NCBI GenBank assembly: GCA_003151625.1
Contig: PLYC01000013.1
Location: 93,210 to 157,209, forward strand
Direction: 5' to 3'
DNA: 64,000 bases
Source of the DNA: Candidatus Doudnabacteria bacterium
GTDB lineage: Bacteria > Patescibacteriota > Doudnabacteria > UBA920
A model generated the notes under the pieces. It ran no database searches. It saw only the letters and a list, made by a program, of their open reading frames with translations, and was not told the origin of the DNA. Made by a program: the position numbers and the translations under genes. Positions 1,885 through 22,004 of the stretch are shown here, in pieces. Position 1 is the stretch's first letter, and each line of letters opens with the position of its first letter.

Positions 1885-2835
1885 CTAAATTAAATTTTCC
1901 ATATTGGCCAAAGACTCCACGTCGGGCCGCAAGGTATGGGTTGGCAGACAGCGCAGATAGACTTCCGTCATGCGCAAATCCGTATGCCCAAGTAACTGCT
2001 TAAGCGCGGCCAAACTTCCTCCGTTCGCCAAAAAGTTTACGGAGAATGTATGCCGGTATTGGTGAACATGAAATTTCACGCCCGAACCCTCAATCACTTT
2101 GTTTACAAAATGTTTGAAGCCGTCAAAACTTAGGCGTTGGTCCCGGCTGTTGGACACAAACAGGTACGGATTTTTATAGTCTTTTTCTTTACGGGCTTTT
2201 AGGTAATCAACTAATAATTTATACGCGGCCGAATTTATGGGAATAAAGCGATCCCTCCTGGACTTGGAAGTTTCCCCCCGCACATGGAGTTCGCGTTTTT
2301 CCAAATTCAAATCAAGCACCTTAAGTTGTATTAATTCCCCTCTCCTAACGCCGGTGTTAAGCAGGGTGCCAATAAGAGCCATACTCCTTTTTTGTATGAA
2401 TGGGCTATGCCAATCAATGTTAAGACTTACGGCTAGCCAAATCCGTTCCAGTTGTTGCTTGTTCAGGAATTTTCTGTCGCTGTAAATAATCCGAGGGTAG
2501 CGCATATGCTTAAATGGATTATCGGCCAGGTATTTATTTTGTACCAGCCAATCAAAAAAACTATTTAATTTTGACCGGTATGTACCAATGGTGCTAATCC
2601 TGACGCCATTCCTTATTTCCCCTTTTCCGACAACTCTGTCGCGCTGTTCCAGGCGTTTGAAGAATTCGTTTAGAGTTTTGATAGTTAGCGTGTTTAAATC
2701 TACCCCAGGCATAAGCTTTTGGAACAATTCAAACGTCGCCACGTATCCTCTAATTGTGGCCGGTGAGCGCCGGGTTGAATACCGGCGCTCGTTCACAAAC
2801 TCCTGGTGGAGTTCGGTTAAATCTCTATTCTTCAT
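1885..2835 (-). CDS. tyrosine recombinase/integrase (XerC/D-phage integrase family)
   Basis: C-terminal HQYRHTFSVNFLANGGSLAALKQLLGHTDLRMTEVYL (R..H..R/H..Y catalytic box). 316 aa. Confidence 0.85.
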   Translation of the reverse strand: MKNRDLTELHQEFVNERRYSTRRSPATIRGYVATFELFQKLMPGVDLNTLTIKTLNEFFKRLEQRDRVVGKGEIRNGVRISTIGTYRSKLNSFFDWLVQNKYLADNPFKHMRYPRIIYSDRKFLNKQQLERIWLAVSLNIDWHSPFIQKRSMALIGTLLNTGVRRGELIQLKVLDLNLEKRELHVRGETSKSRRDRFIPINSAAYKLLVDYLKARKEKDYKNPYLFVSNSRDQRLSFDGFKHFVNKVIEGSGVKFHVHQYRHTFSVNFLANGGSLAALKQLLGHTDLRMTEVYLRCLPTHTLRPDVESLANMENLI

Positions 2836-3808
2836 TTGGATCTCCTTCGGGTAGGCTTGCTACTTTAGCCTCTATAACTTCCGGTTCGGCTTCCTCCGGT
2901 TCGTTTAGCCATCTGGCGACATGCCTTTTGACGCTCCTAAGGTTTAGTAATACCCTGGCAATGTTAATTGCGCCTATATCTGCCGGGTTATAGTTTTGCA
3001 GATGGGTTATAAGCTTTCGGGAGGCATCGCTGATTTTTTCCGCTGGTTCCATGGCGGCACTAATGGCGTCACTAACTGGCGTGGGCGAGTAGTTGGGAAT
3101 AATTTTTGACATCTGGGCATTAACCGCAAATTCGTCTAAGCCCGTGTAATCAACATTCATTATTTCCACGCCTTGGTCCGGGTATTGCACCAACGCTCTT
3201 TTAACCGCCATCGCGCTTTCTTTGGACTGGAACTCTTCGGCAATTATTTTTTCTTCCATCTCTTCCTTAAAGTCTTCCGGGATGTCTTTTAAGGCGCGGG
3301 CGTAGCTAGAGGGTATACCTTTTTCGGTTATGGCTTTTTTCATAACAGGAGAAAGATCAAGTAGACTTAATTTCTCATGCACATAGCTTTCGGACTTACC
3401 TACAGCGTGGGCAAGTTCAGTAATGCCTTTGTCATTGTGACCACCACTCCCTTTTTTTGCCTTGGCAGGAGTGATTAATGAAAGCATCTGATGTAGTGCT
3501 TTGGCTATATCCATATCGGGCATGGAATTTTGGATCAAGTTTTCTATAACCTGTCTTTGAAACCGGGCGCTGGCGTTTTCTGGATTAACTTCGCGGCAGG
3601 GTACAGTTTTTAATCCTGCTTTTTTGGCTCCTTCGTAACGGACGTGACCGGTGACAATGACAAAATTATTGTCAATTTCTATGGGATTAATAATCCCTTG
3701 AGCCGCAATACTCCTGGCCATATCAGCGACCGCCGCAGGGTCAATCTTGGAACGCGGCTGGTTTGGATCGGGTTTAATTTTCCCAATCTGTACTTCTTTG
3801 ATGTTCAT
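2825..3808 (-). CDS. ParB-like nuclease (ParB N-terminal/Srx) domain protein
   Basis: GHVRYEGAKKAGLKTVPC resembles the ParB box GxRRxxAA..G..xVP. Overlaps the integrase gene by 11 nt (operon). Confidence 0.65.
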   Translation of the reverse strand: MNIKEVQIGKIKPDPNQPRSKIDPAAVADMARSIAAQGIINPIEIDNNFVIVTGHVRYEGAKKAGLKTVPCREVNPENASARFQRQVIENLIQNSMPDMDIAKALHQMLSLITPAKAKKGSGGHNDKGITELAHAVGKSESYVHEKLSLLDLSPVMKKAITEKGIPSSYARALKDIPEDFKEEMEEKIIAEEFQSKESAMAVKRALVQYPDQGVEIMNVDYTGLDEFAVNAQMSKIIPNYSPTPVSDAISAAMEPAEKISDASRKLITHLQNYNPADIGAINIARVLLNLRSVKRHVARWLNEPEEAEPEVIEAKVASLPEGDPNEE

Positions 3809-6114: not shown

Positions 6115-6585
6115 ATGAACTATGTTATAAGCCTTAACTGTAAAGTTGACGCCAGAAATCAAGAAGAGGCCAAAGCCAAGGCGCTGATGAATATCCAGGT
6201 TAGAGAAGCCGCACCTTTAATGCTTGCGCCTCTTGATGTTTATGAGTGTCTAGAAAAATACCGAAAAAAGCAGAAGGAATATTTTATTACCTGCCTCCTT
6301 GATACGCAAAATAACCTCCTGGGCTTTAAGGTTATTGCCGTCGGCACATTAAATACTTCGCTGGTGCATCCGCGCGAAGTATTCAGGCCTGCGATAGCCG
6401 CCAACTGCGCCAGTATTATTGTGGCGCACAACCATCCATCGGGAACATTGGAGCCGAGTCCCGAAGATGTCCAAGTCACCAAAAGGCTCAAGGAGTCAGG
6501 TAAATTGATAGGAATTGAACTCACGGATCATGTCATCATAACCATGTACGGCTTTTATAGCTTCCGCGAACATCACCTGCTCTAA
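6115..6585 (+). CDS. RadC-like JAB/MPN domain protein
   Basis: JAMM motif AHNHPSGTLEPSPEDV (HxHx7Sx2D). Confidence 0.8.
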   Translation: MNYVISLNCKVDARNQEEAKAKALMNIQVREAAPLMLAPLDVYECLEKYRKKQKEYFITCLLDTQNNLLGFKVIAVGTLNTSLVHPREVFRPAIAANCASIIVAHNHPSGTLEPSPEDVQVTKRLKESGKLIGIELTDHVIITMYGFYSFREHHLL

Positions 6586-7245: not shown

Positions 7246-7977
7246 TTATTTTGGTTCCTGCTCACTAACAACCAAGGTTTTTAGCAATTCTTCAATCTGC
7301 TGGCGGTCTTTTGGGAAATGGTAAAAAGGATGGGAGGCAATAAGCTTTTGAATCCATTGTTTTTGAATAATATAGGTATTTTCCAGAGGTTTAAGTCCAA
7401 AAGTTATTTTAGCTCTGGAAAACACTATTGTCGGTTTTATATAAATTTCTACTCCCAGTTTTTCTTTAAGAAAGTTATGCAGGGACAAAGCCTGGGACTT
7501 GGATTGCCATAAAAAGTTTTTTTCCAGCAGTTGGCCATATCTGGTTAGCTGGGAGCCATTAAAGCCTATTATGCCTTTGTGGCTTTTAACTTCTATGGTA
7601 AATATTCCGGTTGGCCCGACAAGCACAAAGTCTATATTCCCCTGCTCTGGCTTAATAACGACATCGGCAAATACGGAATAAGCGTCCGGTAGTTTTTTAA
7701 GTTCATAGGCAACTACATCTTCCCCTTTTAACCCCTGAAAAAATTTGTCAGCCATCCCGTCCTCTTTGTCAATTAGTTTTTTTATAACCCAAAAGAGCGG
7801 AGCAAAAACAATAATAGAAATTATTATGTAGCCGGGCTGGGATGTATGGCCGACTAATTTGGTAAAATATTCGTATAAAGCCCAAAGGCCGACTAAAGCG
7901 TATAACAAAACCGCGACCACAGAAACCCAGGCCATACGGATGGAATACTTACTTCGGTTGCCAAAAAATTGAGCCAT
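7246..7977 (-). CDS. NERD (nuclease-related domain) membrane protein
   Basis: N-terminal TM helices then DVVIKPEQGNIDFVLVGPTGIFTIEVKSHKG, NERD-like. Confidence 0.55.
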   Translation of the reverse strand: MAQFFGNRSKYSIRMAWVSVVAVLLYALVGLWALYEYFTKLVGHTSQPGYIIISIIVFAPLFWVIKKLIDKEDGMADKFFQGLKGEDVVAYELKKLPDAYSVFADVVIKPEQGNIDFVLVGPTGIFTIEVKSHKGIIGFNGSQLTRYGQLLEKNFLWQSKSQALSLHNFLKEKLGVEIYIKPTIVFSRAKITFGLKPLENTYIIQKQWIQKLIASHPFYHFPKDRQQIEELLKTLVVSEQEPK

Positions 7978-8773: not shown

Positions 8774-8929
8774 TTATAAATCTAAATCATCAACATCAAT
8801 CCCCAAATTTTCCATCCGCTCTAAAGCCTCGTCAGCATCGCCATTGTTAATCTGCTCGGCCAGTTCTTCCTTTAGCCCGTCTTCGTCCACTTCCATTCTT
8901 ATTTCGTCCTCTAAATCTTCAAGTGGCAT
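8774..8929 (-). CDS. small acidic protein (51 aa)
   Basis: MPLEDLEDEIRMEVDEDGLKEELAEQINNGDADEALERMENLGIDVDDLDL. A truncated paralog of its 5' end lies at 11962-12009. Confidence 0.35.
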   Translation of the reverse strand: MPLEDLEDEIRMEVDEDGLKEELAEQINNGDADEALERMENLGIDVDDLDL

Positions 8930-8948
8930 AATTGCGTATGAGCAAATC

Positions 8949-9944
8949 CTAGTGTTTAATTATGTTAATTTTTGATTCTTTTGAGTTTGCAGTTATTTCT
9001 ACTTCGCCCCCAATGGGAAGTGTAATTTTTGGGTCTGTATGGCCAAAATCTACATTTGCTATTACAGGTATATTTTTAAAGTCAGGTTTGGATGTTATTA
9101 TTTGTTTTATTTTATTATCTGACATCTGGCTGGCTTTTTGAAACCTCCCAATAACTAAACCTCTTACTTTTCCAAAATTCGGTAGCTGAATTAACGATTG
9201 CAAATTGCGGTCAAATTCCACGGCTGAAGATTCCTTTGGTAGATCATCGTCTTCCAAGAAAAGAATACTGTCTGTTAAGTCCGGGAAGTATTCCGTACCC
9301 TGTAGCAAATTAAAGGTGCAAAGATTGCCGCCAAGAATGGTGCCGCTGGCCTTACCCTGATTTATAACCAGTTGTCCTTGGTTAGGAATAAGGGCGCGTT
9401 CATTTTGGTTTTTAAACCACAGGTCATCACTCCAATCCTTGCTGGGTTCAATTTTAAAAGGCTCGTTAGAAAATAAACATTTTTTGCAATAATCCAGCGT
9501 GTAGTCAAAATATTTTTCTTGGCCAAAAGTGGAATAATGCGGCCCGTAATAACTCACAAGCCCGGTCTTGGCAAAAATCGAGTTGTTTAAAATTGTAATG
9601 TCTGAGTACCCGCAGAGAATTTTTGGGTTGTCTTTAATCAACTGCCAATCAACATGCCTTAATAATTGGTTAGAATTATAGCCGCCAATTACTGTAAAAA
9701 TAGCCTTAACGTTCTTGTCCGCAAACGCCTGGTGTAAGTCTTCAATACGCGATTCTATTGTGGTAGAATCAAATTCGTCTTTTTCTTCAACGTTTCTGCC
9801 AAAACTAATCTTTAGCCCCAAGTCATTAAATCGGTTGTTGGCAATTTGCCTTAAGCCGCCTGAAATAATCCCCAGAGATCTTGACGGAGCTATAACCCTA
9901 ACCTCGTCCCCTGTTTTTAATTTTGAAGAGTAGATTTTATTCAT
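8949..9944 (-). CDS. S66 family LD-carboxypeptidase (LdcA/MccF-like)
   Basis: GDEVRVIAPSRSL, CGYSDITIL, GGNLCTF and FGHT motifs. Confidence 0.8.
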   Translation of the reverse strand: MNKIYSSKLKTGDEVRVIAPSRSLGIISGGLRQIANNRFNDLGLKISFGRNVEEKDEFDSTTIESRIEDLHQAFADKNVKAIFTVIGGYNSNQLLRHVDWQLIKDNPKILCGYSDITILNNSIFAKTGLVSYYGPHYSTFGQEKYFDYTLDYCKKCLFSNEPFKIEPSKDWSDDLWFKNQNERALIPNQGQLVINQGKASGTILGGNLCTFNLLQGTEYFPDLTDSILFLEDDDLPKESSAVEFDRNLQSLIQLPNFGKVRGLVIGRFQKASQMSDNKIKQIITSKPDFKNIPVIANVDFGHTDPKITLPIGGEVEITANSKESKINIIKH

Positions 9945-9962
9945 AATAGTTAACTAATATTG

Positions 9963-10157
9963 TTAAAATTTTTTAGCTTTTAGTCTATTATTGGCAAAAT
10001 GCAAAGTAAAAGCCGAACCTGACGGCCGGGAAATTCCAAGCCGCGTGTCCATATAAAAACAGCGCGGACAGTCTAAGAACGTGCCAATCTTGCCCCGGCT
10101 TGGCTTAAAGAGCTTGTCGGTCGCTTGATCGAATAAATAGTTTCTTTTGCTTGGCAT
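9963..10157 (-). pseudogene. truncated paralog of the N-terminus of the Cas4-like nuclease at 15434-16177
   Basis: MPSKRNYLFDQATDKLFKPSRGKIGTFLDCPRCFYMDTRLGISRPSGSAFTL vs MAYKRSNLYEPEADKPFKLSRSKIDMFLDCPRCFYMDRRLGISRPSGPAFTL. ~85% DNA identity over ~150 bp. Confidence 0.6.
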
Positions 10158-10158
10158 A

Positions 10159-10806
10159 TTAGGATGCCAATAATTTTGTTACCCAATCGTTGAAATGTGG
10201 GCAATTATTTCTAATTTCCTGCAAACCGGTTCTGGAAGCTATTAGGCTGCCAAAAAGTGGCTTTCTATAGTTTGGGAAAAGTTTTATAAGTCTTTTGCTT
10301 GGATGAGTTTCCGGACCTTGGTTTATTTCCTCGGGAGTTTTAAAGGCATCTCTTATATTTTGCACATCCTGTTTTTTATTCCGATCCAAAGTATCGGAAA
10401 TAACTTCTGGTACTGAAAAAAGCAGGCCTTCAAACTCGTGAAGTTGCAAATAAGGAATGAAGCGTTCATTATTGATGTCGTTAGCAAAAGCCTGTTCCGC
10501 CGCTTTAACTTTATCGTAGCAAGAACCTTCATTTTTCCAATTTGGAAAGTCGGCAGGCAGGCCATAAAAATCCATCATCGTGGTTACCGCGGTAACATTT
10601 GAGTCCCTGAATAATTTTTTTGCATCGCGCTTTATGGCTCCATACGAACTTACGCCGCCCTTAAAATTTGGACTATTTTTAAGTATTTTTGTATTAATTA
10701 TGGTTGGAATTAAAAACAGACCCTGCTCCTGGAAGGTAGGGTTTAAAATATCTTTTACGAACCGTTCCTCAGTTTGTCCTTCGACTAAGATAAAAATTCT
10801 TTTCAT
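10159..10806 (-). CDS. DUF4276-like protein (partner of AAA_21 ATPase; possibly Toprim/OLD-like)
   Basis: N-terminal MKRIFILVEGQTEERFVKDIL, a characteristic DUF4276 start. 8-nt gap to the ATPase gene. Confidence 0.55.
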   Translation of the reverse strand: MKRIFILVEGQTEERFVKDILNPTFQEQGLFLIPTIINTKILKNSPNFKGGVSSYGAIKRDAKKLFRDSNVTAVTTMMDFYGLPADFPNWKNEGSCYDKVKAAEQAFANDINNERFIPYLQLHEFEGLLFSVPEVISDTLDRNKKQDVQNIRDAFKTPEEINQGPETHPSKRLIKLFPNYRKPLFGSLIASRTGLQEIRNNCPHFNDWVTKLLAS

Positions 10807-10813
10807 AAGTCAG

Positions 10814-11911
10814 TTATGGCCTGCCGCCAATAATATTTTTTTCCCACATATCTCCCAGTCCATAATCTTCAAGCCAAGAACCGAGTTCGTTAGAAGTGAG
10901 TCTTCGAAAAGAAGACTGTCCGTCGCTTCTGTCCACCACAATAATAGATTCGGGTTTTAGCTGATTTATCAAAGTTACGGATTGGGTTGAAACAATAACC
11001 TGTGTTCTGGTCGCGGCGCTTTGCAAAAGATTGGCAAGCAAATTTATTGCCGCGGGATGCAAACCTAATTCAGGTTCATCAAGCAAAATTGTGGTCGGCA
11101 ATTTTTCCGCCGGTTGTAATAATAAAGTTGCCAGGCATATAAAACGCAATGTGCCGTCAGACAATGAAGCTGCATTAAAATAGCTGTCAGAATTTTTGTG
11201 CTGCCATTCCAACTGAATACTGTCCGGTTTTAAGGGCGATGTTCTTAATACGAAAGAGTTAAAAAACGGAGCAATTAATTTAACGGTGTCAGTTATATTT
11301 TTAAAATCATAAGGATATTTTTTTTCCAATAAATACAAATAAGCCGCTAAATTTGAAGCGTCCGGTTTAAAAGAAGCGTTGTCATTTATTGGCCCGGTTT
11401 TTTTTAGTAAAGCTGTGTCGCTGGTATCATGGAAATGATACAGTCTCCAACTTCTTATGCTGGCCAAAGTGCTGGCAGAAACATTTCCCGCTTCTGCCGC
11501 GAGCCCCGTTTCCTTACGGTCGGGAGAGAGTGTATTAAATTCAAACGGTTTGGTGTAATTAGGTCCTAAATAAGAACCCCCTTCTTCTTCAAAAAATAAA
11601 GAATCATCAGCCGTAGGAACCAACTTTAGCCAGTAGGAATTGGGACCAAAATCAACTTTAACTTCCAAGGCGTGAGTAGTTTTTGAACCAAAATAAAGAA
11701 GCGTGTTGGCGCCTCCAGATTTTCTGATAAGGTTTTGCATGCGGCCTTCGGCCATTTCTCCCAAAAATTTGAAGAGTGAAATAAAGTTTGATTTTCCCGC
11801 GCCATTGGAACCAATCATTACATTTAAATCGCCCAATTTAAAATTTTCCAACGACTTGATGGATTTATAGCCTTTTATTGTAATATCAGTAACCTTATTT
11901 TGGTATACCAT
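10814..11911 (-). CDS. ABC-type AAA_21/SMC-like ATPase
   Basis: Walker A GSNGAGKSN, Walker B/D-loop LLDEPELGLHP, and VIVSTQS. Confidence 0.8.
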   Translation of the reverse strand: MVYQNKVTDITIKGYKSIKSLENFKLGDLNVMIGSNGAGKSNFISLFKFLGEMAEGRMQNLIRKSGGANTLLYFGSKTTHALEVKVDFGPNSYWLKLVPTADDSLFFEEEGGSYLGPNYTKPFEFNTLSPDRKETGLAAEAGNVSASTLASIRSWRLYHFHDTSDTALLKKTGPINDNASFKPDASNLAAYLYLLEKKYPYDFKNITDTVKLIAPFFNSFVLRTSPLKPDSIQLEWQHKNSDSYFNAASLSDGTLRFICLATLLLQPAEKLPTTILLDEPELGLHPAAINLLANLLQSAATRTQVIVSTQSVTLINQLKPESIIVVDRSDGQSSFRRLTSNELGSWLEDYGLGDMWEKNIIGGRP

Positions 11912-12214
11912 AATGCTTATATTATATCATAATTTTGACTATTTCATAGGCCAACTAGAAATCACTTTGACTCACCCTTTATTTCGTCCTCTAAATCTTC
12001 AAGCGGCATAGGTTTTAACTATTTGTTCTATCTTCTCCGGTTGTGCTTATTCCCAAGACTAAACAAAGCCCAAACGACAGAAAGCAGGCTTAAGAAAATT
12101 GCCAGTCCTTTGTGCCCGGTTTTAAAGAGTGCGTATATTAAGCAACAAAATGCTACAAATAGTATGAAGTCTAGCATGGGAGTTTAGTTATAATTTTTAT
12201 TAATAAATATAGAT

Positions 12215-12550
12215 TCATTCGCCTCTATTTTGTGTTTCGTATATCTCCCAGGCATAATCAAACGGCAGTAGTGAACATAAAAAATTGCCGTCCTTGTCCT
12301 TTGGGGTATATTCATCCACTATATCCAAAATTGCACTTTGCTCATCTTCCGAAAGTTCTCTCCCAATTAGATCCTGCAACTCAAGGAACTGTTCATCGAT
12401 AATGGCAACATTCCCTTCAATCCGCTGATCTTCATCTGTGGCTTGCTTCTGAGCAACTTTGTGCTCCACCATAAGTGTCCAAAACACATCCTCAAGAGTC
12501 ATCTTAGGAAGCATATTATCTTGTGCAAATTTTTTTGCTTTTTTCTTCAT
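12215..12550 (-). CDS. hypothetical acidic protein (last gene of the 8-gene operon)
   Basis: 111-aa ORF, 11 nt after the upstream gene. Confidence 0.45.
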   Translation of the reverse strand: MKKKAKKFAQDNMLPKMTLEDVFWTLMVEHKVAQKQATDEDQRIEGNVAIIDEQFLELQDLIGRELSEDEQSAILDIVDEYTPKDKDGNFLCSLLPFDYAWEIYETQNRGE

Positions 12551-12561
12551 ATTTATGATTT

Positions 12562-12873
12562 TTAATTTGGCAGCCTACCTTCTTTTTCTCTGATTAGATA
12601 TGTTTCTGACTTTAAACAACGGTTTATAATACCTTCCATATGCCAGTAGGTGTAACCGTTATAGTCAAAATATACCTGCTTTGTTTGATAAAAATGGGAT
12701 TCGTAACCGAAGGTGTCGATGTGATGCGCGAGTGCCAGGAACAAATCGTTATCAACCCGCTCCTGGACAATATACTCGTGAGGCCAGGTTTTTGCGTACG
12801 TGACTGCAAAAATCCACTTTGAATTGTCTATAAATTGTTTTAACTTTTCAGAAAGTTTACCATTCTTGGTCAT
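12562..12873 (-). CDS. hypothetical protein
   Basis: 103 aa. 4-nt overlap with the upstream gene. Confidence 0.45.
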   Translation of the reverse strand: MTKNGKLSEKLKQFIDNSKWIFAVTYAKTWPHEYIVQERVDNDLFLALAHHIDTFGYESHFYQTKQVYFDYNGYTYWHMEGIINRCLKSETYLIREKEGRLPN

Positions 12874-13979
12874 TCCGTCGCCTCCAAAGATTTTTTAATC
12901 CATAAACAGACTTCAAAAAATTCACGCCTGGCGTCTTCATTGGCGATAACCCGGAGAGGCAACTTTAGGCCGTTGTAGCCGTCAACATTATCCACATGTA
13001 CCGTGGCACCTTTGATTGAGCTAAGCCGTTTTAATATTTCGGAACGTTTTACCGGGTTATCAAAAGGGTATGGGCTTTTATTTCCCTGGTGGGGAGCATT
13101 CCAAGAAACATTCCCATCTCCGGTAACCGATAAAGGATAAAAACCTTTTTTACCCTCGGGATAATAACACAAGAAAAAACCGCCGCGCTGGCTCGTGGTC
13201 CATTCAATTTCTATACCATTGTCGTTTGCCCAATCAATGATCTTTTGTGCCGCTATCACTTCTTCTGCGCCAATTTCTTTCAAACGCTCTTTAAATATAT
13301 CCCAGTCCCATAATTTCTTATCACGAGTTGTTGTCTTCATGTCCTTTTTGACCTCGGCTCCAAATATTCTCGGAATAATTATCTCATACGTTTCGTGTTT
13401 ATAATACTCAAGCTCAACAGCATATATATCAAACTGGCTGTTTTGGTTAACGTAAAGTATTAAGTCCTTAAGTCTGGCATCAAGACTGTCCATCAATATG
13501 ACAAAATGAAGAGCACCGTCACTCAAATTATCGCGGACGGAATTCAGCAATTGGGCTATTTCTTCGTTAGATAGGCCAAAGTGTTCCTGAAGTTTTTGAT
13601 TCAGCGAAATCTTGAATGTTTTTTGAACATTCGCCTCAAGTATTGAGGAAAATTCACTAAAATCATTTGAGTGCTTCCAAAGAGCAGCACCATAATCCAG
13701 TGATTGAGCTACTACGGTTCGCTTATCGGGATTTTTGTACAGTTTAGTTTCAATAATATATATTTCTCCCTCTCTATCAACGCCGATTGCGTCAATTGGG
13801 CCGCTGTGCGTCGGGAACTCCCTAGCCAGGATAAGAAGCCGTATATCTTCTTTGATGTCATATAATGGGACACTGTCGGGATTATCGTAAATATATTTCT
13901 GAAGATAATCTTCTTTATCAAAAGTTGATTTTTCTATTTTTTTAGCATTTTTGCCGTTTTTAGAAATAATAATCGCCAT
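12870..13979 (-). CDS. hypothetical protein, possible PD-(D/E)xK nuclease fold
   Basis: GPIDAIGVDREGEIYIIETKLYK, a D..E.K-like arrangement. 369 aa. Confidence 0.4.
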   Translation of the reverse strand: MAIIISKNGKNAKKIEKSTFDKEDYLQKYIYDNPDSVPLYDIKEDIRLLILAREFPTHSGPIDAIGVDREGEIYIIETKLYKNPDKRTVVAQSLDYGAALWKHSNDFSEFSSILEANVQKTFKISLNQKLQEHFGLSNEEIAQLLNSVRDNLSDGALHFVILMDSLDARLKDLILYVNQNSQFDIYAVELEYYKHETYEIIIPRIFGAEVKKDMKTTTRDKKLWDWDIFKERLKEIGAEEVIAAQKIIDWANDNGIEIEWTTSQRGGFFLCYYPEGKKGFYPLSVTGDGNVSWNAPHQGNKSPYPFDNPVKRSEILKRLSSIKGATVHVDNVDGYNGLKLPLRVIANEDARREFFEVCLWIKKSLEATE

Positions 13980-14060
13980 AGGTTATATGTGTTAATTTCG
14001 CTTATACTATTTGTAATCTGATTAAGGCTCTTTCAATTAGTTTAAATTTTTATAGTTAGC

Positions 14061-15419
14061 TTATTCAAGAAAATCAGCTATCTTTTCTTGATTTATGATT
14101 CCATTTGCAAGAAAAAGGTCTTCTAATTGCGAATGGTCAACGCCAGCATGTGAAAGTTTATGAGCAATGATATTAAGTAAATCATTTGCTTTCATTAAAA
14201 CTACAGGGCATCGTGTTTCCTTATAAATATCTTTTATGGAGCTATCCAACGATTGGTTGTCAGAAAAGTCTGATGAGACAATCAGAAATGAAAATTTTTT
14301 AATCCGCCTTTTTTGGAGCTCTTTTTGATATTTTTTTATATATTCACTAATTTCTCTATCCCCAGTGCCAATAGAATATCCTTTTTCTCTAGCCTTTGCG
14401 TCATAAACAATGGCATAATAGTATTCAGAGTTTGCATCTGTCGAATAAGCGATGCCGTCTGGTTCTCTGCCTTTTCCTTGCCCGAGACTTTCCACTTCAT
14501 AACCCAAAATCCCAAATGCATAACCCAATTTTATTTCAAAAGCCCTTTCCGGTTTGAGATTCATTTTTTTTGACCATTCTGTTTCTTTATTTAAGGCAAG
14601 TTCTTTAAGGTCACTGATAATAGGCGGCACCCATTCTCTGACCAATTGATTAGGTTTTTGTTTAATGGGTGATTCCTTTTTGGTTTCTGCCTCTATTATT
14701 TCATCCGTTCTTATTGGCTCTTTAAATCCACCCCAAGGAGCTTGGTCATCTTCCGCATCAACTTTCCATAAATCTTTCACGCCAGACGAATATAGAAAAG
14801 ATGTTAATGTCCGTGGTGAGTATTTTATACCTAACTTTCTAAAACCAGCAATTAAATCATCGTTTGATTGGACAATCTTTTCCCCTATAGGGTCTTTTTC
14901 AAAATCCACGTGGCTTTCAAAGCCAAAGTATTCCGTGGCCTTTTTACGGTCTCTCAGCGAGATAACGCTGACACTGGAAGATGGGTTATAGGCAAAAATC
15001 ATAGCACTGACCGCGTTGCCGCGTGGTCCGGTTAAGTTGTTGTGGTTACCTTCATTTAACTTATATAGTTCATCAATTAATTTAGCTTTTTCTTCACCCA
15101 CGGTTTTGAATATTTGATCTAGTTGTTTATGCAGTTCTGGCTTATTTTTAATTTCATTAAACATCCGACGCCAAGCCCCTTGTGTGATCATAGTCCTCGC
15201 TACTGCTTCACTTTCTCTGGTATTGCCCTTCCCAGCCCTGTCCAATATTCTGATTATTCCATCCAATTCTAAATCATCCAAATCCTCTTTGGAATTGGTC
15301 ATAATCTTACCATTCCAAAAGTCCCTAAACTCCCTGCTTTGTGCTACCCATAAAGCGTCCTTAGACTCGGAGTCATAATTTTTTATAAACTCGTTAAATA
15401 ATTCTATGATTTTGTCCAT
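14061..15419 (-). CDS. hypothetical protein (C-terminal possible PD-(D/E)xK-like motif)
   Basis: EPDGIAYS...YYYAIVYDAKAR. 452 aa. No confident family. Confidence 0.4.
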   Translation of the reverse strand: MDKIIELFNEFIKNYDSESKDALWVAQSREFRDFWNGKIMTNSKEDLDDLELDGIIRILDRAGKGNTRESEAVARTMITQGAWRRMFNEIKNKPELHKQLDQIFKTVGEEKAKLIDELYKLNEGNHNNLTGPRGNAVSAMIFAYNPSSSVSVISLRDRKKATEYFGFESHVDFEKDPIGEKIVQSNDDLIAGFRKLGIKYSPRTLTSFLYSSGVKDLWKVDAEDDQAPWGGFKEPIRTDEIIEAETKKESPIKQKPNQLVREWVPPIISDLKELALNKETEWSKKMNLKPERAFEIKLGYAFGILGYEVESLGQGKGREPDGIAYSTDANSEYYYAIVYDAKAREKGYSIGTGDREISEYIKKYQKELQKRRIKKFSFLIVSSDFSDNQSLDSSIKDIYKETRCPVVLMKANDLLNIIAHKLSHAGVDHSQLEDLFLANGIINQEKIADFLE

Positions 15420-15433
15420 TTTAGTATGCTTAA

Positions 15434-16177
15434 TTATGTAACTTCTACTAGCTGAGATTTTTTTCTATACTGGCAGAATTCGCATTCCGGGTTAGGAGCA
15501 GGGAGACTGGCTTGGTTTAAGCAATCGTGAATATTAAAAATTGTTTGCTCTACCCAGGAGTCCGAGCCGGTGTAAGGGATTAGTTTAGCGTCAAATTCCA
15601 ATACGCCATTAAAGCCTGCCCTGTCTTTCTTGCCGTTCACATAAAAAAAGTAACCGATGTTAGAAACTTTTAAACCATTTTGTCTTAACAGCCACTGGTA
15701 GACTTCCATTTGCCTGCGGTAGGAGTTATGCCACTTGGCATCCGTTAACTCTACCTCACCCTCTTTGCTGGTGGCCTTATAATCCACCACAATGTATTCT
15801 CCTTCCGAGTTTTTCCACAAATCATCAATGGCTCCAAAAATTAACATATTGGTTTTTTTGTGGAGGCACTGCACGCCGGTAAAATTATGCCGCCACTGGT
15901 CTAAAAGCTCATGAGCTACAGGCACAGCGTCCAGGCCGTAGGCTTCCATAAGCGGATGTTTGGTTCCATTGGCGCGGTAGACATCAAATTCTTTTTTCAA
16001 CAAAGCGTCCACGGCAACGTTCAAAGTAAAAGCCGGACCGGATGGTCGGGAAATTCCAAGCCGTCTGTCCATATAAAAACAGCGCGGGCAGTCTAAAAAC
16101 ATGTCAATCTTGCTCCGGCTTAGCTTAAAGGGCTTGTCGGCTTCGGGCTCGTATAGGTTGCTTCTTTTATAGGCCAT
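15434..16177 (-). CDS. Cas4-like/RecB-family PD-(D/E)xK nuclease with 4-Cys cluster
   Basis: N-terminal DCPRCFY, IVVDYKAT (D..K), C-terminal CEFCQY. 247 aa. Confidence 0.6.
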   Translation of the reverse strand: MAYKRSNLYEPEADKPFKLSRSKIDMFLDCPRCFYMDRRLGISRPSGPAFTLNVAVDALLKKEFDVYRANGTKHPLMEAYGLDAVPVAHELLDQWRHNFTGVQCLHKKTNMLIFGAIDDLWKNSEGEYIVVDYKATSKEGEVELTDAKWHNSYRRQMEVYQWLLRQNGLKVSNIGYFFYVNGKKDRAGFNGVLEFDAKLIPYTGSDSWVEQTIFNIHDCLNQASLPAPNPECEFCQYRKKSQLVEVT

Positions 16178-16185
16178 TTTAAAGT

Positions 16186-18771
16186 TTAATTTGAAAGATT
16201 TAATTTATCGCGTCTTTTCTCCAATGCTTTTTTGCCACCTTCCAAAATCTCAATAATTTCATCTCTGATTGCCGGGTTTTCAATAGCCCCTGATTCGTAA
16301 GTAAAGTTTGGATTTTTACCCGCAGTTTTATTTGAGACAACGACTTCCTCGCTGTCTCCGCAAACCACTAGATTTGCGTTATGGGATGCTATTATTATTT
16401 GCCGCTTTATTTTTTCGGCTTTTAGAAAGTCCACAATATGTTTTGAAATAGCTTTTGCATCCAAATCATCCTCTGGTTGATCCAGTAATACCGGGTAATT
16501 ATAATCGTCAAATTTAAAAATAAACTCTAATAAAGCTAGCATCTTTTCGCCATCGGACATATTGACAAACTCATCGCCATTTCGGCTTTTAATACTTTTC
16601 TGAAAGTCTACCTTAAACCTATTCCTAAATAATTCCATGAGCAAAATTTCTTCATTTTTTCCGGACTTCAAAATTAATTGACCTGTTAAAATACCCAGCG
16701 TTAGCTGTTTAAGAAGTAATGAGAATTCAATTTTTTTGTAGTCCCATTGCTCTGGCTCTCTTAGAAATGTATTTGCTTTTTCGTTTTTTGGATTTTCTTT
16801 AAAAGAAATAGAATTGTGGTAATTAATATTGTCTTCAATAAATTTTTTAAATGATTGCGTATCAAAACTAGTGGTAATGTCCACTTTTGAGAAAGCCAAG
16901 CTCCCCAGGTTTATGCTTAAACTTTTGAACTGCTCATTAAACTGGCTATACTTTTCTACAATTTTGCTAAGTCTGTCCGAGTAAGAGGCCCTTAACTTTA
17001 TAATTTCTTCGTCTGTTTCATTAATGGTTTTTAAAATTTCGGCTTTTTCTTGCAAGGTCTTTGTTAACATTAACAGCGCTTGATGTTTTTCTACCTTGGT
17101 TTGTAGAGGCTTTAACTCCGTGTCCAGTTCTTTAATTTTCTTTTTAACGTTTTCCTTTGAATTTACTAATTCCGTAATCTCTTTTTCAATAAAGTCCTTT
17201 TTAAAAACTTCGTCAGATTCTTTAAGTTTGGCCTCCATCTTTATTACATATTTTTGCGAAAATTCAAATTCCAAAATCTTGTCCGCTGAAATTACTTCTT
17301 CCTGCTTCAACATTTTAAAAGAAGCTAAGTCCTTGTCTATAATCTTAATTTCGCGTTCTTGCGCCGCCTTGTCAGAATTTATTTTTTTATAATTTTCAAG
17401 TTCCTTATTTGTGACTTCACTATTACTTTTCCTGGTCAAATTAAGGCTTGCCTCAATTTTCAAAATTTCTTTTTCCAAATCTTCCTTTTTCCCAAGTTTT
17501 TTTAATTTTTCTCCCTTTTCCCTGCCGTTATTCCTTATTGCTAGAAGTTCTCTGACAAGAGATGTTATAGACAATACGTTTTCGTCTTCAAATTTTTTGT
17601 AATTTTGTAGCGCATTTTTAAAGTTGTCTTTATTTTCAAAAAGATTTGACAAAAAGTTGTCAAAATTAACATTTTTTTCATACACCAAGTCCCCTAGGTA
17701 TTTTTGAGGAATAAAAAGAACTCCTTTATCTTCTGTTTCTTTTAAAGAACTAACTTTGCCATCTCTCCAAAATAGTTTGAAATTCTTTAACTGCAGGAAG
17801 TCGGCACCATCAACTCCTTTCAGCCTGCACTGAACTGGATCAATAGAAAAGGCAATATTTCTTAAAAGATTTGATTTCCCTGTGGCCCGACTCCCAATTA
17901 CTGAGTTTAAATTTTGATTAAAGTAAACTATTTGTTTACTACCGTCATGATTTGTGAATTCCGCTCTGTCAATAATACAATAATCGGATTTTTCCTCTGG
18001 TTTTAATTCTTGAATTTTAACCCTACATTCTGGTTCATAAATTATTTGTTTTAAACCTTCAAAAGTTGGATCGGCTTTTATCCAGCAATTTTGTTTAAGG
18101 GAGTATTTTTTGACATTATGGTTATCGGAACAAATAACCATTGGAAAAAAGCCAATCTTCTTAAAGACAGTATCCCTATAGTCGGCCTGGTCTTTCTCCT
18201 GCCCTAACTCAAAAATTTGCACTTCGCTCGCTATGTCTTTTTTCTCAGCCATTTTTACAGGCAGAGAGTTAGTAATTTTTTCTATGGAATTCGACTTCCT
18301 GCCCGCATGGATTGAGACAACGCCGCCGAGTCTTTTTATTAAGTTCGCAGTATCTTTTAAATCGCAGTAAATTTCGTTATCCTTTTGTCCTGATTGTCTT
18401 TGCGATGCAATCTTGGCTTGGGATTGTATTTCGTTCCAAATGTAATTTACATCCGAATTTTCCGGGAAAATGCCAATAAAGTGGACCGGCTCGCTCCCCC
18501 GGCTGTCTGAGCAAAATTCTATTCCTGGCAAAACAGTCAAATCATCACCGCCAGCCTTTTTTAATTTTTCAATAACCTGGGAGTCAATAATGTGATGATC
18601 GGTAATCGCAACAACTTTAATTTGTTGCTTTTTTAAGGCTTCAGCAATTTCCTCTGAAGTGTTGGCTTTATTGTCATGGTCGTAGGAGCTGGGAGTGTGA
18701 AAGTGTAGATCCCATTTTCTCCATTCGGAACCTCTAAAGTATTTTTGCATAGTTTTTATAGTAACGGCCAA
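16186..18771 (-). CDS. PHP-domain + SMC/ABC-like ATPase fusion protein (Ppl-like)
   Basis: N-terminal WDLHFHTPSSYDHD...AITDHH (PHP metal-binding motifs). Walker A GSRATGKSN, long coiled-coil, Walker B LLDQPEDDLD. 861 aa. Confidence 0.7.
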   Translation of the reverse strand: MAVTIKTMQKYFRGSEWRKWDLHFHTPSSYDHDNKANTSEEIAEALKKQQIKVVAITDHHIIDSQVIEKLKKAGGDDLTVLPGIEFCSDSRGSEPVHFIGIFPENSDVNYIWNEIQSQAKIASQRQSGQKDNEIYCDLKDTANLIKRLGGVVSIHAGRKSNSIEKITNSLPVKMAEKKDIASEVQIFELGQEKDQADYRDTVFKKIGFFPMVICSDNHNVKKYSLKQNCWIKADPTFEGLKQIIYEPECRVKIQELKPEEKSDYCIIDRAEFTNHDGSKQIVYFNQNLNSVIGSRATGKSNLLRNIAFSIDPVQCRLKGVDGADFLQLKNFKLFWRDGKVSSLKETEDKGVLFIPQKYLGDLVYEKNVNFDNFLSNLFENKDNFKNALQNYKKFEDENVLSITSLVRELLAIRNNGREKGEKLKKLGKKEDLEKEILKIEASLNLTRKSNSEVTNKELENYKKINSDKAAQEREIKIIDKDLASFKMLKQEEVISADKILEFEFSQKYVIKMEAKLKESDEVFKKDFIEKEITELVNSKENVKKKIKELDTELKPLQTKVEKHQALLMLTKTLQEKAEILKTINETDEEIIKLRASYSDRLSKIVEKYSQFNEQFKSLSINLGSLAFSKVDITTSFDTQSFKKFIEDNINYHNSISFKENPKNEKANTFLREPEQWDYKKIEFSLLLKQLTLGILTGQLILKSGKNEEILLMELFRNRFKVDFQKSIKSRNGDEFVNMSDGEKMLALLEFIFKFDDYNYPVLLDQPEDDLDAKAISKHIVDFLKAEKIKRQIIIASHNANLVVCGDSEEVVVSNKTAGKNPNFTYESGAIENPAIRDEIIEILEGGKKALEKRRDKLNLSN

Positions 18772-21700
18772 TTAGAAATAAGCTGATCAATTTCTTTCAT
18801 AATGCGGATGGTTTCGCGGAGGGAGGCGACGATTTTCATATAGTGCTTTAAGTCGTCCAAAGACAGGCTACGCTCGGCCTTTTTGCGATCCTTTAGCCAC
18901 TTCTCACAAACCTGATAGCCGCCAATCATAAACTCCCAAACTTCTTTTTCCACACCTTCAAAATACTGGCCGGGATTTACGTAAACTCGTCGGTCTTTAG
19001 CTGAATATTTAACCTCGGTAACTTTCCAGTCTTCCAAACTTTCCGGCTTCTCACCCCCAAGACTAATCCCCCATTTGTCCGAATCGTCAAAAATTGTCTT
19101 GGACTGATCAAACGGATTTTCTCCGAGCAAATGCAAATTTACTAACTCGTTACCTTTGGCAACTAATTTTTTAAACAGTTCTTTATTGGAAGTTAGCGGT
19201 AAGCGCGGAAAATCTATTTTCAACTGTTCGGCATACCTGATCCGGTAAGTCGGGCAATGAAAAATAGCATAAGTATAGTAAAACACATCTTCCGGTCCAA
19301 AAGTTTTTTCCAAATCACCTCGCCCATCGCTAATAAAGCTTATCCCAAGTTTTTGAGAACATTCCTTAGTAAATTTTTCGGAAAAATTTACTTTTTTGTT
19401 TAGTTTCCCAAAAAGATTAGATTGTGTTGAGTCGGAGTATAGGTATAGCGGAAAGATATAAGAGCCTATTGCTGAATCTAGATTATGCATATCACACAAT
19501 AATGATGTAACAAAAAAATGGTTATTTTTCTGATTCTGGATATTTCGATGTAGGGTCAGCCCTAAATTATTTTTATTAAGGAAATGTTTCATTATATCTT
19601 GTCTAGGCCAGTCTAACAATTCCTTGTTGTATATTAAATAACGGTTGTCAAAAGCTCTGAATTGAATTTTAATAATCTCATTATTATAATCTATCTTCTT
19701 TTTTCTCGCTTCTGATAAAAGCCATCCTCGCGTATCGCCCTTTAAATACTTACCTGATCTTTTCCCAGAAGAAAAAAATCTGACCCTAATAGTATCATCA
19801 CTATTATTTAAATTAAAAAAATAATCTAACTTTTTTAACAAATCTTTTCTTTCAAATCCATAAACAAGCTGATCCCTTGAAGATTGTATGCCTGTATTGC
19901 AAGAATCAAATACATCCTTTACAGAATTTATTTGGTTATAGTCATCTTCGTGATGGACTACTTTAAAAATGTAATGTGGAGCGTTTGGTTCAATTTCAGT
20001 CCACTCTGTATTATTAACTTCATGAGTTAAAAGGAACTCAAATTTATTTTCTTTTAGGCCAAAAAGTTCAGAATAAAAAATATTCTTTGCTATTTTTCTT
20101 TCGTTTTTGATAAAAAATGAAATTACAACACCTGTTTGAATTGGAAAAACATTTTCATCCTTTGTACCATCAGGCGCCTTTTCATTTTTGACCGAACTGC
20201 CATGTAAATTAAGAATATAAATTTCATCGAAATAATTCAATAAATTATAGCGCATTCCTCTAAAAGTTGGGTTATCCAGAAAATTGTGATTTGTTATAAA
20301 AGATAAAATTCCATGTCCTATATCTGCAATCTTCCATTGAGCAAAACGAATAAATTTTACATAATCATCTTGAAGCCAATGCTTTTTTTCTCCAAAATGT
20401 TTACCATCAATATATTTATAGTCCTCAATAAGTTTATTAATCCATTCTCCTTTATTAGCCGATACCCCGGAATATGGCGGGTTGCCGATTATAGCTAAAA
20501 TTGGCGCGTCTTTTTTGACTTTACGCGCGGCTTCGCTTTCTTCAGCGATTGAGGGAAAGGCTATAGAACCAAAATCAGTTGTAGCTTTGGCCTGTTTTTG
20601 GTAAGCGTTGGGATCATCAAGCGTATTTGCCAAATAAACTTTTAAGCGGTCTTTGTCGCCGTCGCCCTTTGCCATCTCAAAATCAAAACCCAAATCTTCT
20701 AAAAGCAAAGTAAGTTTTAAATGGGCAATGGCGTAAGGTGCGACTAAAAGTTCAAAGCCATAAAAATGTTTTAAAATGTGGTCAACAACTACCCTATTAA
20801 ATTCCTTAGTTACCATTTCTGGGCCCAAGGTGTTATTTTGCTTTTGAACTGCGGAGTGAATTTGCTGAATGGCGGACATTAAGAATGTGCCGGTGCCAGT
20901 GGCCGGGTCAAGTAAATGGACGCTTTCATCAGCCAAACCTTTTTCTTTGCCGAATTTTTCTTTTAAGATGAAATCTACACTACGGACAATGTAATCTACT
21001 ACCGGCTTTGGCGTGTAGTAGACACCTCGCGCTTCGCGTTCCTTAGGGTCGTATTCGTTCAAAAACGGCTCGTAGAAATGAATAACCGGGTCCTCGCCGA
21101 CTTTATGCTCTCGTAACTTTAACTCAATTTTAGCCATCTCGGCCGCGTTCAGCTGGTCTATTAGGGCGGTGGTGGCCTGGTGAATATTAGGAATAACTTG
21201 GGAGACTTTTTTAATCAAAGAATATAAGTCGGCCAAAATAGGAACGCTTGCTGGTAAATAATCCATTGCCGTGGTTAAGGTTAGAACATCGGACTTGCCG
21301 CGCTTGGTATGCTCCAAAGAGGCCAGGAATAAAGAATACGCCACAGTTTCGGCCACCATATTGGCAAACTGGTGCGGCTCTATATTTTGGATTAAAGTTT
21401 TCTCAAAAGTTTCTTTTAGCTTAACCAAGTCCGAAGTTTCGTCGGCATCCTTAAAGGCTTCTTCCACTTGATTAGACAAAAGCTTAGTCTTTTTTGCCAA
21501 GGCCAACGCCAGCTGTTTAGTGGTACGCGCTTCATAAGCTTTGCCGGAAAAGAATTGATGCAAGATGTCAATCAGGTTTTGCTCCTCGCCGGTGGTAAAA
21601 TTTGCAACATCAAAAATTATTTCTTTTATTTTTACCGGCTTGCCTTCGTCACCCCATTGCCAAAGCTGCCACTGTTTAAAATTGGTGAATAGAATATTTT

Positions 21701-22004
21701 CTAAAGCGTCCTTATATTTTTCAAACTGCTTATTGAATTTAGGACTGTCTAAGGAATCTTCCGGTAGTTTTACTTCCACCCAGCCAACCAGCCGGTCTTT
21801 TCGCCGTACAGTAACGTCAGGAAAGCCCACGCCACCGGCAACGGCTTTAGCGCTCTCTTCGGCCGTGGCAAATATGTCTTTGGACTTTTCCAATTCGGCG
21901 AGCTCCTGCAGGAAGTTAGTTAAAGCCGGGTAAAAGGATCGTTCGGTGCCGTGGTCTTTAATCCTTAAAAAACTTTGTTGGAATTTTTCTATTGGTATGT
22001 TCAT
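18756..22004 (-). CDS. N6-adenine DNA methyltransferase, Type IIG/IIL(MmeI)-like or PglX-like; possible N-terminal PD-ExK endonuclease segment
   Basis: Motif I LLDPATGTGTFL and motif IV IIGNPPYSG. N-terminal FPDVTV..GWVEVK. 1082 aa. 16-nt overlap with the downstream gene. Confidence 0.8.
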   Translation of the reverse strand: MNIPIEKFQQSFLRIKDHGTERSFYPALTNFLQELAELEKSKDIFATAEESAKAVAGGVGFPDVTVRRKDRLVGWVEVKLPEDSLDSPKFNKQFEKYKDALENILFTNFKQWQLWQWGDEGKPVKIKEIIFDVANFTTGEEQNLIDILHQFFSGKAYEARTTKQLALALAKKTKLLSNQVEEAFKDADETSDLVKLKETFEKTLIQNIEPHQFANMVAETVAYSLFLASLEHTKRGKSDVLTLTTAMDYLPASVPILADLYSLIKKVSQVIPNIHQATTALIDQLNAAEMAKIELKLREHKVGEDPVIHFYEPFLNEYDPKEREARGVYYTPKPVVDYIVRSVDFILKEKFGKEKGLADESVHLLDPATGTGTFLMSAIQQIHSAVQKQNNTLGPEMVTKEFNRVVVDHILKHFYGFELLVAPYAIAHLKLTLLLEDLGFDFEMAKGDGDKDRLKVYLANTLDDPNAYQKQAKATTDFGSIAFPSIAEESEAARKVKKDAPILAIIGNPPYSGVSANKGEWINKLIEDYKYIDGKHFGEKKHWLQDDYVKFIRFAQWKIADIGHGILSFITNHNFLDNPTFRGMRYNLLNYFDEIYILNLHGSSVKNEKAPDGTKDENVFPIQTGVVISFFIKNERKIAKNIFYSELFGLKENKFEFLLTHEVNNTEWTEIEPNAPHYIFKVVHHEDDYNQINSVKDVFDSCNTGIQSSRDQLVYGFERKDLLKKLDYFFNLNNSDDTIRVRFFSSGKRSGKYLKGDTRGWLLSEARKKKIDYNNEIIKIQFRAFDNRYLIYNKELLDWPRQDIMKHFLNKNNLGLTLHRNIQNQKNNHFFVTSLLCDMHNLDSAIGSYIFPLYLYSDSTQSNLFGKLNKKVNFSEKFTKECSQKLGISFISDGRGDLEKTFGPEDVFYYTYAIFHCPTYRIRYAEQLKIDFPRLPLTSNKELFKKLVAKGNELVNLHLLGENPFDQSKTIFDDSDKWGISLGGEKPESLEDWKVTEVKYSAKDRRVYVNPGQYFEGVEKEVWEFMIGGYQVCEKWLKDRKKAERSLSLDDLKHYMKIVASLRETIRIMKEIDQLISNWPLL

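Follow-up and report, generated by a model that had tools for sequence, protein, structure and literature searches.

Investigating a stretch of 64,000 nucleotides (nt) of contig PLYC01000013.1, assigned to a Candidatus Doudnabacteria bacterium and called the window in the following, we observed a pair of adjacent genes on the minus strand, one encoding an ATP-binding cassette (ABC) ATPase and the other a DUF4276 protein, which judged by their profile matches are a full-length, intact copy of the PADLOC candidate system HEC-01. We consider it fairly probable (roughly 0.65) that the pair is an intact and self-contained HEC-01 module, in which the ATPase is co-transcribed with a Toprim nuclease, that it most likely serves in defence against phages or mobile genetic elements, and that it was brought to its present place by an insertion of 3,048 nt.

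The ATPase gene (HEC-01A, 10814-11911, minus strand) encodes 365 amino acids (aa) of an ABC ATPase of the SMC/Rad50/OLD type and is followed by the DUF4276 gene (HEC-01B, 10159-10806, minus strand; 215 aa, start MKRIFILVEGQTEERFV), whose product is predicted to have a Toprim-type nuclease fold and a helical C-terminal part. Both open reading frames (ORFs) lie exactly where a first-pass annotation had placed them as a two-gene module of an AAA_21 ATPase and a DUF4276 protein, and the three motifs which it quoted for the ATPase are all present: the Walker A motif GSNGAGKS from residue 34 (G34-S41, including K40), the Walker B/D-loop LLDEPELGLHP (residues 276-286) and VIVSTQS from residue 305, in which Q310 occupies the H-loop position. 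The ABC signature LSDGT is found at residues 250-254 and a family motif, YHFHDTS, at 158-164. The genes are as close as had been stated in principle, although the spacer between the stop codon of the ATPase and the start codon of the DUF4276 gene measures 7 nt (10807-10813, minus strand) and not 8, an operon-like coupling. Pfam AAA_21 matches the ATPase with an E-value of 1.8e-30 (model positions 1-304 of 304) and Pfam DUF4276 the 215-aa protein with 5.2e-56 (positions 1-191 of 192); on this profile evidence both assignments are far beyond chance, and the DUF4276 assignment stands. A promoter-like site, TTGGCC-17-TATGAT (11926-11954, minus strand), is located 15 nt upstream of the ATPase start and within the inserted segment; it is a consensus match only, and the promoter scan counted 13 such sites in the region where 10.7 were expected, which is not above chance and makes it weak evidence.

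The classification is carried by the PADLOC-DB models. The HEC-01A model PDLC04175 matches the ATPase with an E-value of 3.4e-142 (residues 5-365 on model positions 4-362 of 363) and the HEC-01B model PDLC04188 matches the 215-aa protein with 4.9e-82 (residues 1-213 on positions 12-224 of 230); with the two genes adjacent and co-oriented, every sequence feature by which PADLOC defines HEC-01 is found in the window. The next system types follow at a distance of more than 100 orders of magnitude: on the ATPase, AriA models reach E-values of 6.5e-29 or weaker, mad3 1.9e-26, AbiLi 8e-22, Old 1.9e-18, NsnB 7e-18 and PtuA 1.4e-14. As to system models, the comparison of the 215-aa protein with PADLOC and Pfam returned those of HEC-01B only, with no AriB, AbiLii or RloB model at E ≤ 0.1, and NCBIfam contains no model for this protein. 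The module, which the first-pass annotation had implied to be unnamed, is therefore catalogued already, namely as HEC-01, an Hma-embedded candidate made up of an ABC ATPase together with a TOPRIM-like protein whose metal site is OLD-like (Payne et al., bioRxiv 10.1101/2024.01.29.577857). The search with Pfam and defence models that had been proposed, run here against Pfam and PADLOC, hence recovered AAA_21 and DUF4276 and pointed to HEC-01 rather than to PARIS, Gabija, AbiL or Septu. The likeness to split OLD- or PARIS-type ATPase-nuclease modules which had been noticed holds as a general analogy, but the profiles do not support an identity with PARIS or RloA/RloB. Similarly, the view that such a module lacks experimental characterisation applies to its mechanism, but not to its activity, as two plaque-assay tests of HEC-01 representatives have been published; since HEC-01 is catalogued but mechanistically uncharacterised, the module does not fall into a well-characterised system. 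One further PADLOC model, PDLC04144, carries the label HEC-01B, yet its match is to the ATPase (E 7.7e-23) instead of the DUF4276 protein, which may be a labelling quirk or reflect a fused variant in the database.

The AlphaFold2 model of HEC-01A (pLDDT 88.0 on the predicted local distance difference test) has its best Foldseek matches in the SMC head 4i99, PtuA and Thermus OLD, and matches Rad50 and RecN as well (E about 1e-12). Walker A, YHFHDTS, LSDGTLRF, DEPELGLHP and STQS with Gln310 are invariant features of the family. Walker A, the signature, the Walker B/D-loop and the head fold, by which an ABC ATPase is recognised, are all found in HEC-01A, the exception being the H-loop with its Gln310; canonically, this residue is a His. 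The C-terminal tail is near-invariant across the family as well (W346...W356-E-K-N-x-I-G-G-R-P365), and its last 17 residues (349-365, window 10814-10864, ...GDMWEKNIIGGRP) are modelled as disordered with pLDDT below 50. Such a tail may be a candidate docking peptide for the partner protein or for another protomer.

HEC-01B was modelled with a pLDDT of 89.6 and a predicted template modelling score of 0.86. The model contains four strands (residues 2-8, 30-36, 71-79 and about 117-121) alternating with helices, followed by a helical C-terminal half, and the protein is thus predicted to adopt a three-layer alpha/beta Toprim fold with a four-stranded parallel sheet. When the model was compared with the PDB by Foldseek, the only matches at E ≤ 0.001 were the C-terminal Toprim and helical regions of OLD proteins from Xanthomonas and Burkholderia; the top three are OLD C-terminal regions (6njx, 6nk8) with E-values of 7e-5 to 5e-4 and probabilities of 0.98-1.00, in agreement with the Toprim fold for which a structure prediction had been recommended. 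When the DUF4276 alignment was used for a sequence-profile search of the PDB, nothing but chance matches to the ryanodine receptor came up. Residues E9, G10, E13, G50, G51, T75, T76, D79 and Y81 are invariant down to 34% identity, and so are H123-E124-F125-E126, P169-S170-K171-R172 and K182. The canonical Toprim motif comprises a DxD after strand beta-3 together with an invariant Glu after beta-1. BpOLD binds its metals through E400, E404, D455, D457, T506 and E508, with K562 as the catalytic Lys. By its i/i+4 spacing after beta-1, the E9/E13 pair of HEC-01B may correspond to E400/E404, and D79 at the end of beta-3 probably to D455, while the HEFE motif (H123-E124-x-E126) could be the counterpart of T506/E508 and may supply the remaining metal ligands; this mapping follows secondary-structure position and not a residue-level superposition.

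Homologues of both proteins are numerous: 1,329 of the DUF4276 protein at E ≤ 1e-5, the closest non-self one being 72% identical, and at least 8,000 of the ATPase at E ≤ 1e-10 (all 8,000 scored candidates pass), the closest being 87% identical. The closest named relatives of both come from metagenome-assembled genomes (MAGs) of Patescibacteria, and in the source databases relatives are merely labelled "AAA family ATPase" and "DUF4276 family protein". We compared 81 related loci, 80 of them in species-representative genomes that span many phyla (Chloroflexota, Pseudomonadota including Xenorhabdus, Aeromonas, Pectobacterium and Acinetobacter, Cyanobacteriota, Bacteroidota and others) and one on a Patescibacteria contig (L001). 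The pairing of ATPase and DUF4276 protein is obligate: in every one of the 79 loci that could be judged, the gene directly upstream on the same strand is that of the ATPase, the remaining two loci ending at a contig edge. The median aligned gap between the genes is 5 nt. Loci in which one gene is more similar to its window copy tend to have a more similar partner gene as well (Pearson 0.89, Spearman 0.52 between the two identities), and in 72 of 80 loci the ATPase is the better conserved of the two. Both window proteins keep all residues which the family alignments show as invariant. Compared with the closest relative, the proportion of differing non-synonymous sites (pN) is 0.09 for the ATPase and 0.18 for the DUF4276 gene at a synonymous proportion (pS) of about 0.8; over the four closest relatives pN ranges from 0.09 to 0.15 and from 0.18 to 0.24, respectively, at a saturated pS of about 0.75-0.90, and owing to this saturation pN and pS are given here in place of dN/dS. 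As pN is far below pS, both genes have been under purifying selection.

No third conserved gene was found across the 79 loci, the largest neighbour family occurring in 9 of them only. This is a family of SNF2 helicases, at a median distance of 50 nt and mostly directly upstream; type III-like methyltransferases and type III-like restriction helicases follow with 8 loci each, and in about 8 of the 79 loci (~10%) the pair is embedded in the order SNF2-pair-Mod-Res, a defence-type context which supports a defensive role. Among close relatives, one (on contig L001) adjoins a serine recombinase and a terminase-like gene, another an FtsK-like gene and a recombinase, and a further one a BpuSI-like type IIG enzyme, while the closest relative of all follows, at a distance of 34 nt, a large protein that weakly resembles the methyltransferase of the window (28% over 96 aa). 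The pair is present on 13 plasmids, conjugative ones included, and on three IMG/VR contigs. On the conjugative Aeromonas veronii plasmid pHX3 (L175, 1-6648), a distant HEC-01-like pair (34% identity) stands between a site-specific DNA methyltransferase and a DEAD/DEAH-box helicase.

In the window, the pair is part of an inserted segment (8931-11978; 3,048 nt), which contains an LD-carboxypeptidase gene, a nuclease gene stub, HEC-01B, HEC-01A and the upstream region of HEC-01A. It is bordered by a 32-nt direct repeat: the left copy (11979-12010) provides the first 10 codons of a 15-codon pseudo-start, MPLEDLEDEIKGESK followed by a stop codon (11962-12009), and the right copy (8899-8930) is the true start of a 51-aa acidic ORF (8774-8929). 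The two copies are identical in 31 of 32 positions, and 11979-12010 encodes MPLEDLEDEI..., the beginning of the acidic protein. A metagenome contig (Ga0265316_10003900, here L085), which has the island backbone in common with the window at 88-98% DNA identity, carries the empty site: there, the 51-aa acidic gene (96% protein identity) comes immediately after the 49-aa gene (98%), the repeat is present once, and in a three-way alignment L085 switches from the 12010 side to the 8930 side of the window exactly within the repeat. Segment 8931-11978 is therefore an insertion bounded by a 32-nt duplication. Alternatively, L085 could have lost the segment by recombination between the repeats; the presence of the duplication would even then argue for an origin by insertion.

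The second fragment is a 5' stub of a Cas4-like PD-(D/E)XK nuclease gene (9963-10157, minus strand, 64 codons), the ATG of which lies 1 nt past the HEC-01B stop codon. Its full-length paralogue is encoded in the neighbouring operon (15434-16177, minus strand; Pfam PDDEXK_1 with E 1.1e-14, and Cas4 models of PADLOC): positions 9993-10161 and 16013-16181 are 80% identical in DNA, and the stub ORF is 63% identical to the N-terminus of the nuclease (E 5e-26). To the full-length copy of L085 the stub is again about 80% identical in DNA. Since it is equally remote from both known full-length copies, it should derive from a third variant, in which HEC-01 was placed immediately upstream of such a gene, and the stub thus indicates, as far as sequence comparison allows, an earlier context of the pair directly upstream of a Cas4-like nuclease gene, within a different version of such an island. 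This donor arrangement, HEC-01B directly upstream of a full-length PD-(D/E)XK gene, was absent from the 81 HEC-01 loci, from 80 metagenome loci of the PD-(D/E)XK gene and from the contigs of the closest relatives, and a homologue search with the 64-aa stub returned no candidates. Both flanking gene-fragment duplications that had been reported for the module (9963-10157 and 11962-12009) are confirmed by DNA and protein comparison, and the recombinational shuffling suspected from them is documented by the empty site of L085. The LD-carboxypeptidase gene (8949-9944), apparently intact with the N- and C-terminal domains of Peptidase_S66, is an odd passenger for a defence cassette.

How such a module would work can be outlined by analogy with PARIS, Septu, Gabija/OLD and the predicted NsnB-NsnC pair of Menshen. 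Dimers or oligomers of the ATPase would bind and restrain the HEC-01B nuclease; a phage-derived cue would alter ATP binding or hydrolysis by the ATPase; HEC-01B would consequently be released or activated, and might then cut DNA, or tRNA/RNA, by means of a putative metal site formed by E9, E13, D79 and H123-E124-x-E126. In the literature, DUF4276 is placed in the Toprim superfamily, and one of its homologues is Mad4 of MADS; deletions of mad3 and mad4 weaken MADS defence, and the mad4 deletion cut growth under phage. A 2026 survey of cold-seep genomes included a test of one HEC-01 cluster, picked at random, which protected E. coli B from at least one of the phages T4, T5 and T7, and at least one environmental survey counts HEC-01 among its most abundant types of candidate system (PMC12881386).

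Several observations weigh against this interpretation, and general caution should be taken with regard to its mechanistic part. The contact between ATPase and nuclease, the trigger and the substrate of HEC-01 are all drawn from analogous systems. The template modelling scores (TM-scores) of the HEC-01B model to the OLD C-terminal regions are only about 0.4. The position of the Toprim DxD is taken by D79-x-Y81, invariant down to 34% identity, and the Gln310 of the H-loop is likewise invariant down to 51% identity and still reaches a conservation of at least 90% at 40%; owing to these two deviations, nuclease chemistry and ATP turnover may differ from those of the analogue systems. DUF4276 had no match in 50,697 GenBank phage records and no PHROG family, and the link of the pair to phage biology is therefore one of context alone. 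In the test by Payne et al. (bioRxiv 10.1101/2024.01.29.577857), their HEC-01 representative gave no protection against any phage of the panel, the positive plaque assay (PMC12881386) was reported without a fold-reduction for HEC-01 and without mutants, and both tests concern representatives other than this copy or its close relatives. Finally, the window is a metagenome-assembled contig, so that the insertion junctions are known from assembly alone.

Among the rival explanations, the one which survives best, even though we regard it as unlikely, is that the pair is not autonomous but a sensor/effector sub-module of the neighbouring methyltransferase-helicase system, comparable to Mad3/Mad4 in MADS. 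An operon with an SNF2 helicase, a methyltransferase and an ATPase precedes the pair by about 300 nt on the same strand, relatives are found between SNF2 and Mod/Res genes or, on the Aeromonas plasmid, between methyltransferase and helicase, the closest relative follows a large protein weakly similar to the methyltransferase of the window, and the stub reveals a formerly embedded position; moreover, the ATPase partially matches MAD3, and Mad3 and Mad4 are required for full MADS defence. However, about 90% of the 79 loci have no such neighbours, no neighbour family is conserved and close relatives live in unrelated contexts. The MAD3 match amounts to 101 bits against an NCBIfam cut-off of 420 and no mad4 model matches, the pair arrived by a separate insertion together with the unrelated LD-carboxypeptidase gene, the sister island of L085 has the same backbone without the pair, and the HEC-01 cluster of the cold-seep survey protected E. 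coli on its own (PMC12881386).

Slightly less credit should be given to the idea that the pair serves the mobile element or the cell itself, be it in addiction or stabilisation, in DNA repair or processing, or in a cell-cycle role like that of the archaeal OLD-family protein Cran1. The pair does occur on integrative islands, on plasmids and beside recombinases, the ATPase fold is closest to SMC, Rad50 and RecN heads, one defence test was negative (bioRxiv 10.1101/2024.01.29.577857), and a non-defence role has been reported for the OLD-family ATPase Cran1 (PMC12796447). This is opposed by the patchy distribution of the pair over many phyla with neighbours that repeatedly are restriction-modification, Shedu-type or DNA-modification genes and never a conserved housekeeping neighbourhood, by the one positive plaque assay (PMC12881386), and by the sister genome, which lacks the pair, so that the pair must be dispensable. 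That the arrangement or the module is a relic, or an assembly artefact joining strain variants at short shared sequences, as the truncated gene pieces on both sides, the origin of the junctions from the assembly of a MAG contig and a junction repeat of just 32 nt might suggest, is highly improbable, because neither ORF is truncated, each spans its whole profile and retains all family-invariant residues at a non-synonymous divergence far below the synonymous one, an assembly chimera joined at a shared k-mer would contain the repeat once and not twice at a distance of 3 kb, and a stub that is 80% identical to both full-length copies is not a mis-joined copy of either.

A more far-reaching reading, which we put forward as doubtful, concerns a mechanism of HEC-01 unlike that of PARIS, OLD or Gabija and, independently of it, the way in which the cassette moves. 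The ATPase may be attenuated in hydrolysis by its Gln H-loop and may dock, via its C-terminal tail, a DxY Toprim enzyme with an HEFE metal cluster, the substrate of which might be RNA or tRNA rather than DNA; the cassette may move between defence islands without a recombinase of its own, by recombination anchored on the conserved 5' ends of neighbouring defence genes, and the Cas4-like stub and the 32-nt duplication could be scars of such moves.

Comparison with known systems places the window copy next to HEC-01 as published: both proteins match the models from end to end, the architecture of an ABC ATPase with a Toprim-like DUF4276 protein behind it is shared, and the published structural reading agrees with ours. 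It differs in that it lies outside any Hma system, in an insertion of 3 kb with a nuclease gene stub, and in what appears to be a Patescibacteria-like host. PARIS resembles it in the split design, with an ABC ATPase (AriA) and a separate Toprim-family effector (AriB), and both belong to a common radiation of AAA_15/21 defence ATPases in the tree of the PARIS paper, among whose domain labels DUF4276 appears; AriB, however, is a DUF4435 effector, and AriA has 55 kDa (PARIS paper) in contrast to the 365-aa ATPase of the window. We rejected PARIS, as the 215-aa protein has no AriB or DUF4435 match (E ≤ 0.1) and the AriA models score far below HEC-01A. OLD and GajA (classes 1 and 2) share the type of ATPase head, and the HEC-01B model is closest to the OLD C-terminal Toprim, with an acidic pair like E400/E404 and an Asp ending beta-3, whereas HEC-01 is distributed over two polypeptides, has no UvrD-like helicase partner, and carries DxY for DxD and Gln for the His of the H-loop. 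The OLD/Gabija assignment was discarded, given that ATPase and Toprim are two separate ORFs, no helicase gene flanks the pair and the Old model is weak.

MADS combines an AAA_21-type ATPase (Mad3) with a DUF4276 homologue (Mad4), as does the window pair. We nevertheless rejected it, as the MAD3 score stays below its cut-off, mad4 does not match, and the mandatory MAD6-8 do not appear in the list of PADLOC matches of the ten neighbouring proteins that were scanned (for the SNF2 protein, the best 25 of 43 families). Menshen likewise has an ABC ATPase (NsnB) followed by an effector (NsnC), which carries a DUF4276 effector domain in some variants, and a model of an ATPase-regulated effector has been proposed for it; here, however, the flanks of the pair are a gene fragment, a 49-aa ORF and the LD-carboxypeptidase gene, no NsnA (ParB-DUF262) adjoins the pair or precedes the ATPase, NsnB matches weakly, and HEC-01B lacks the additional N-terminal domain which NsnC carries before its effector, so that Menshen was set aside. 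The two-gene design of an ATPase and a nuclease is also that of Septu (or retron) PtuA-PtuB, where PtuA is among the best structural matches of HEC-01A, and of AbiL (AbiLi/AbiLii), but the AbiLi and PtuA models reach E-values between 1e-14 and 1e-22 on the ATPase only, and the effector is of the HNH type in Septu and of the RloB type in AbiL, neither of which HEC-01B matches. Septu was dismissed on the weakness of the PtuA match and this difference in effector type, and AbiL/RloA-RloB on the missing RloB or AbiLii match of the 215-aa protein.

This copy leaves the knowledge of the kind unchanged. HEC-01 is widespread, yet the data on its activity are thin and conflicting, and the window offers an example that is intact and well defined, from a reduced genome that likely belongs to Patescibacteria. 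The family-invariant residues provide a list for mutagenesis (K40, E279 and Q310 of the ATPase; E9, E13, D79, Y81, H123, E124, E126 and K182 of HEC-01B), and the window and L085 form a natural before-and-after pair, according to which the cassette travels as a unit and was earlier located directly upstream of a Cas4-like nuclease gene.

The operon about 300 nt upstream of the pair (12215-25115, minus strand, co-oriented) is composed of an SNF2 helicase (22005-25115; best model DrmD), an N6/Type-ISP-like methyltransferase with a Type_ISP_C domain (18756-22004), a Ppl-like protein with PHP and ABC ATPase parts (16186-18771), the full-length Cas4-like nuclease mentioned above, a protein with a FokI cleavage domain (14061-15419), a PDC-S11-like protein (12870-13979) and two small ORFs at its end (12215-12873), all on the minus strand. 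It has a helicase-methylase-ATPase composition and matched no PADLOC definition of an Hma, DISARM or BREX system. Hma consists of the helicase HmaA, the m5C (5-methylcytosine) methyltransferase HmaB and the ATPase HmaC (PMC8565338). An Hma-embedded position of the pair was rejected, as the operon has no HmaB or HmaC matches, HmaA is weak (E 4.7e-39) in comparison to DrmD (1.8e-157) and the methyltransferase is N6/Type-ISP-like; since Hma has an m5C methylase, the operon is not Hma by model.

Exact 41-nt direct repeats (1648-1688 and 26197-26237) bracket about 24.5 kb, and next to each of them, on the inner side, is a tyrosine integrase gene (1885-2835 and 25253-26158). On the minus strand the repeat resembles a tRNA T-arm, acceptor 3' strand and CCA; ARAGORN and Rfam detected no intact tRNA or tmRNA in the window, and a serine-recombinase ORF (139-1701) contains the left copy within its 3' end. 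The repeats probably are attachment (att) sites of one integrative island or of two in tandem, and the region between them, which includes the insertion with the pair, looks like an integrative defence island. It further encodes a NERD-domain protein (7246-7977; 243 aa), a RadC-like JAB protein (6115-6585) and a ParB-like protein (2825-3808). In L085 (1040-4904), a Shedu (SduA) gene and a 211-aa ORF are found upstream of a PD-(D/E)XK gene that is 92% identical to the one in the window, and a GmrSD_N-HNH protein is encoded downstream of it, slots which in the window (12870-18771) are occupied by the PHP-ATPase and the FokI-like protein; the differing contents speak for a turnover of cassettes. 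Across the 80 metagenome loci of the PD-(D/E)XK gene, its 54 upstream neighbours fall into 42 families, and its 48 downstream neighbours into 42 as well.

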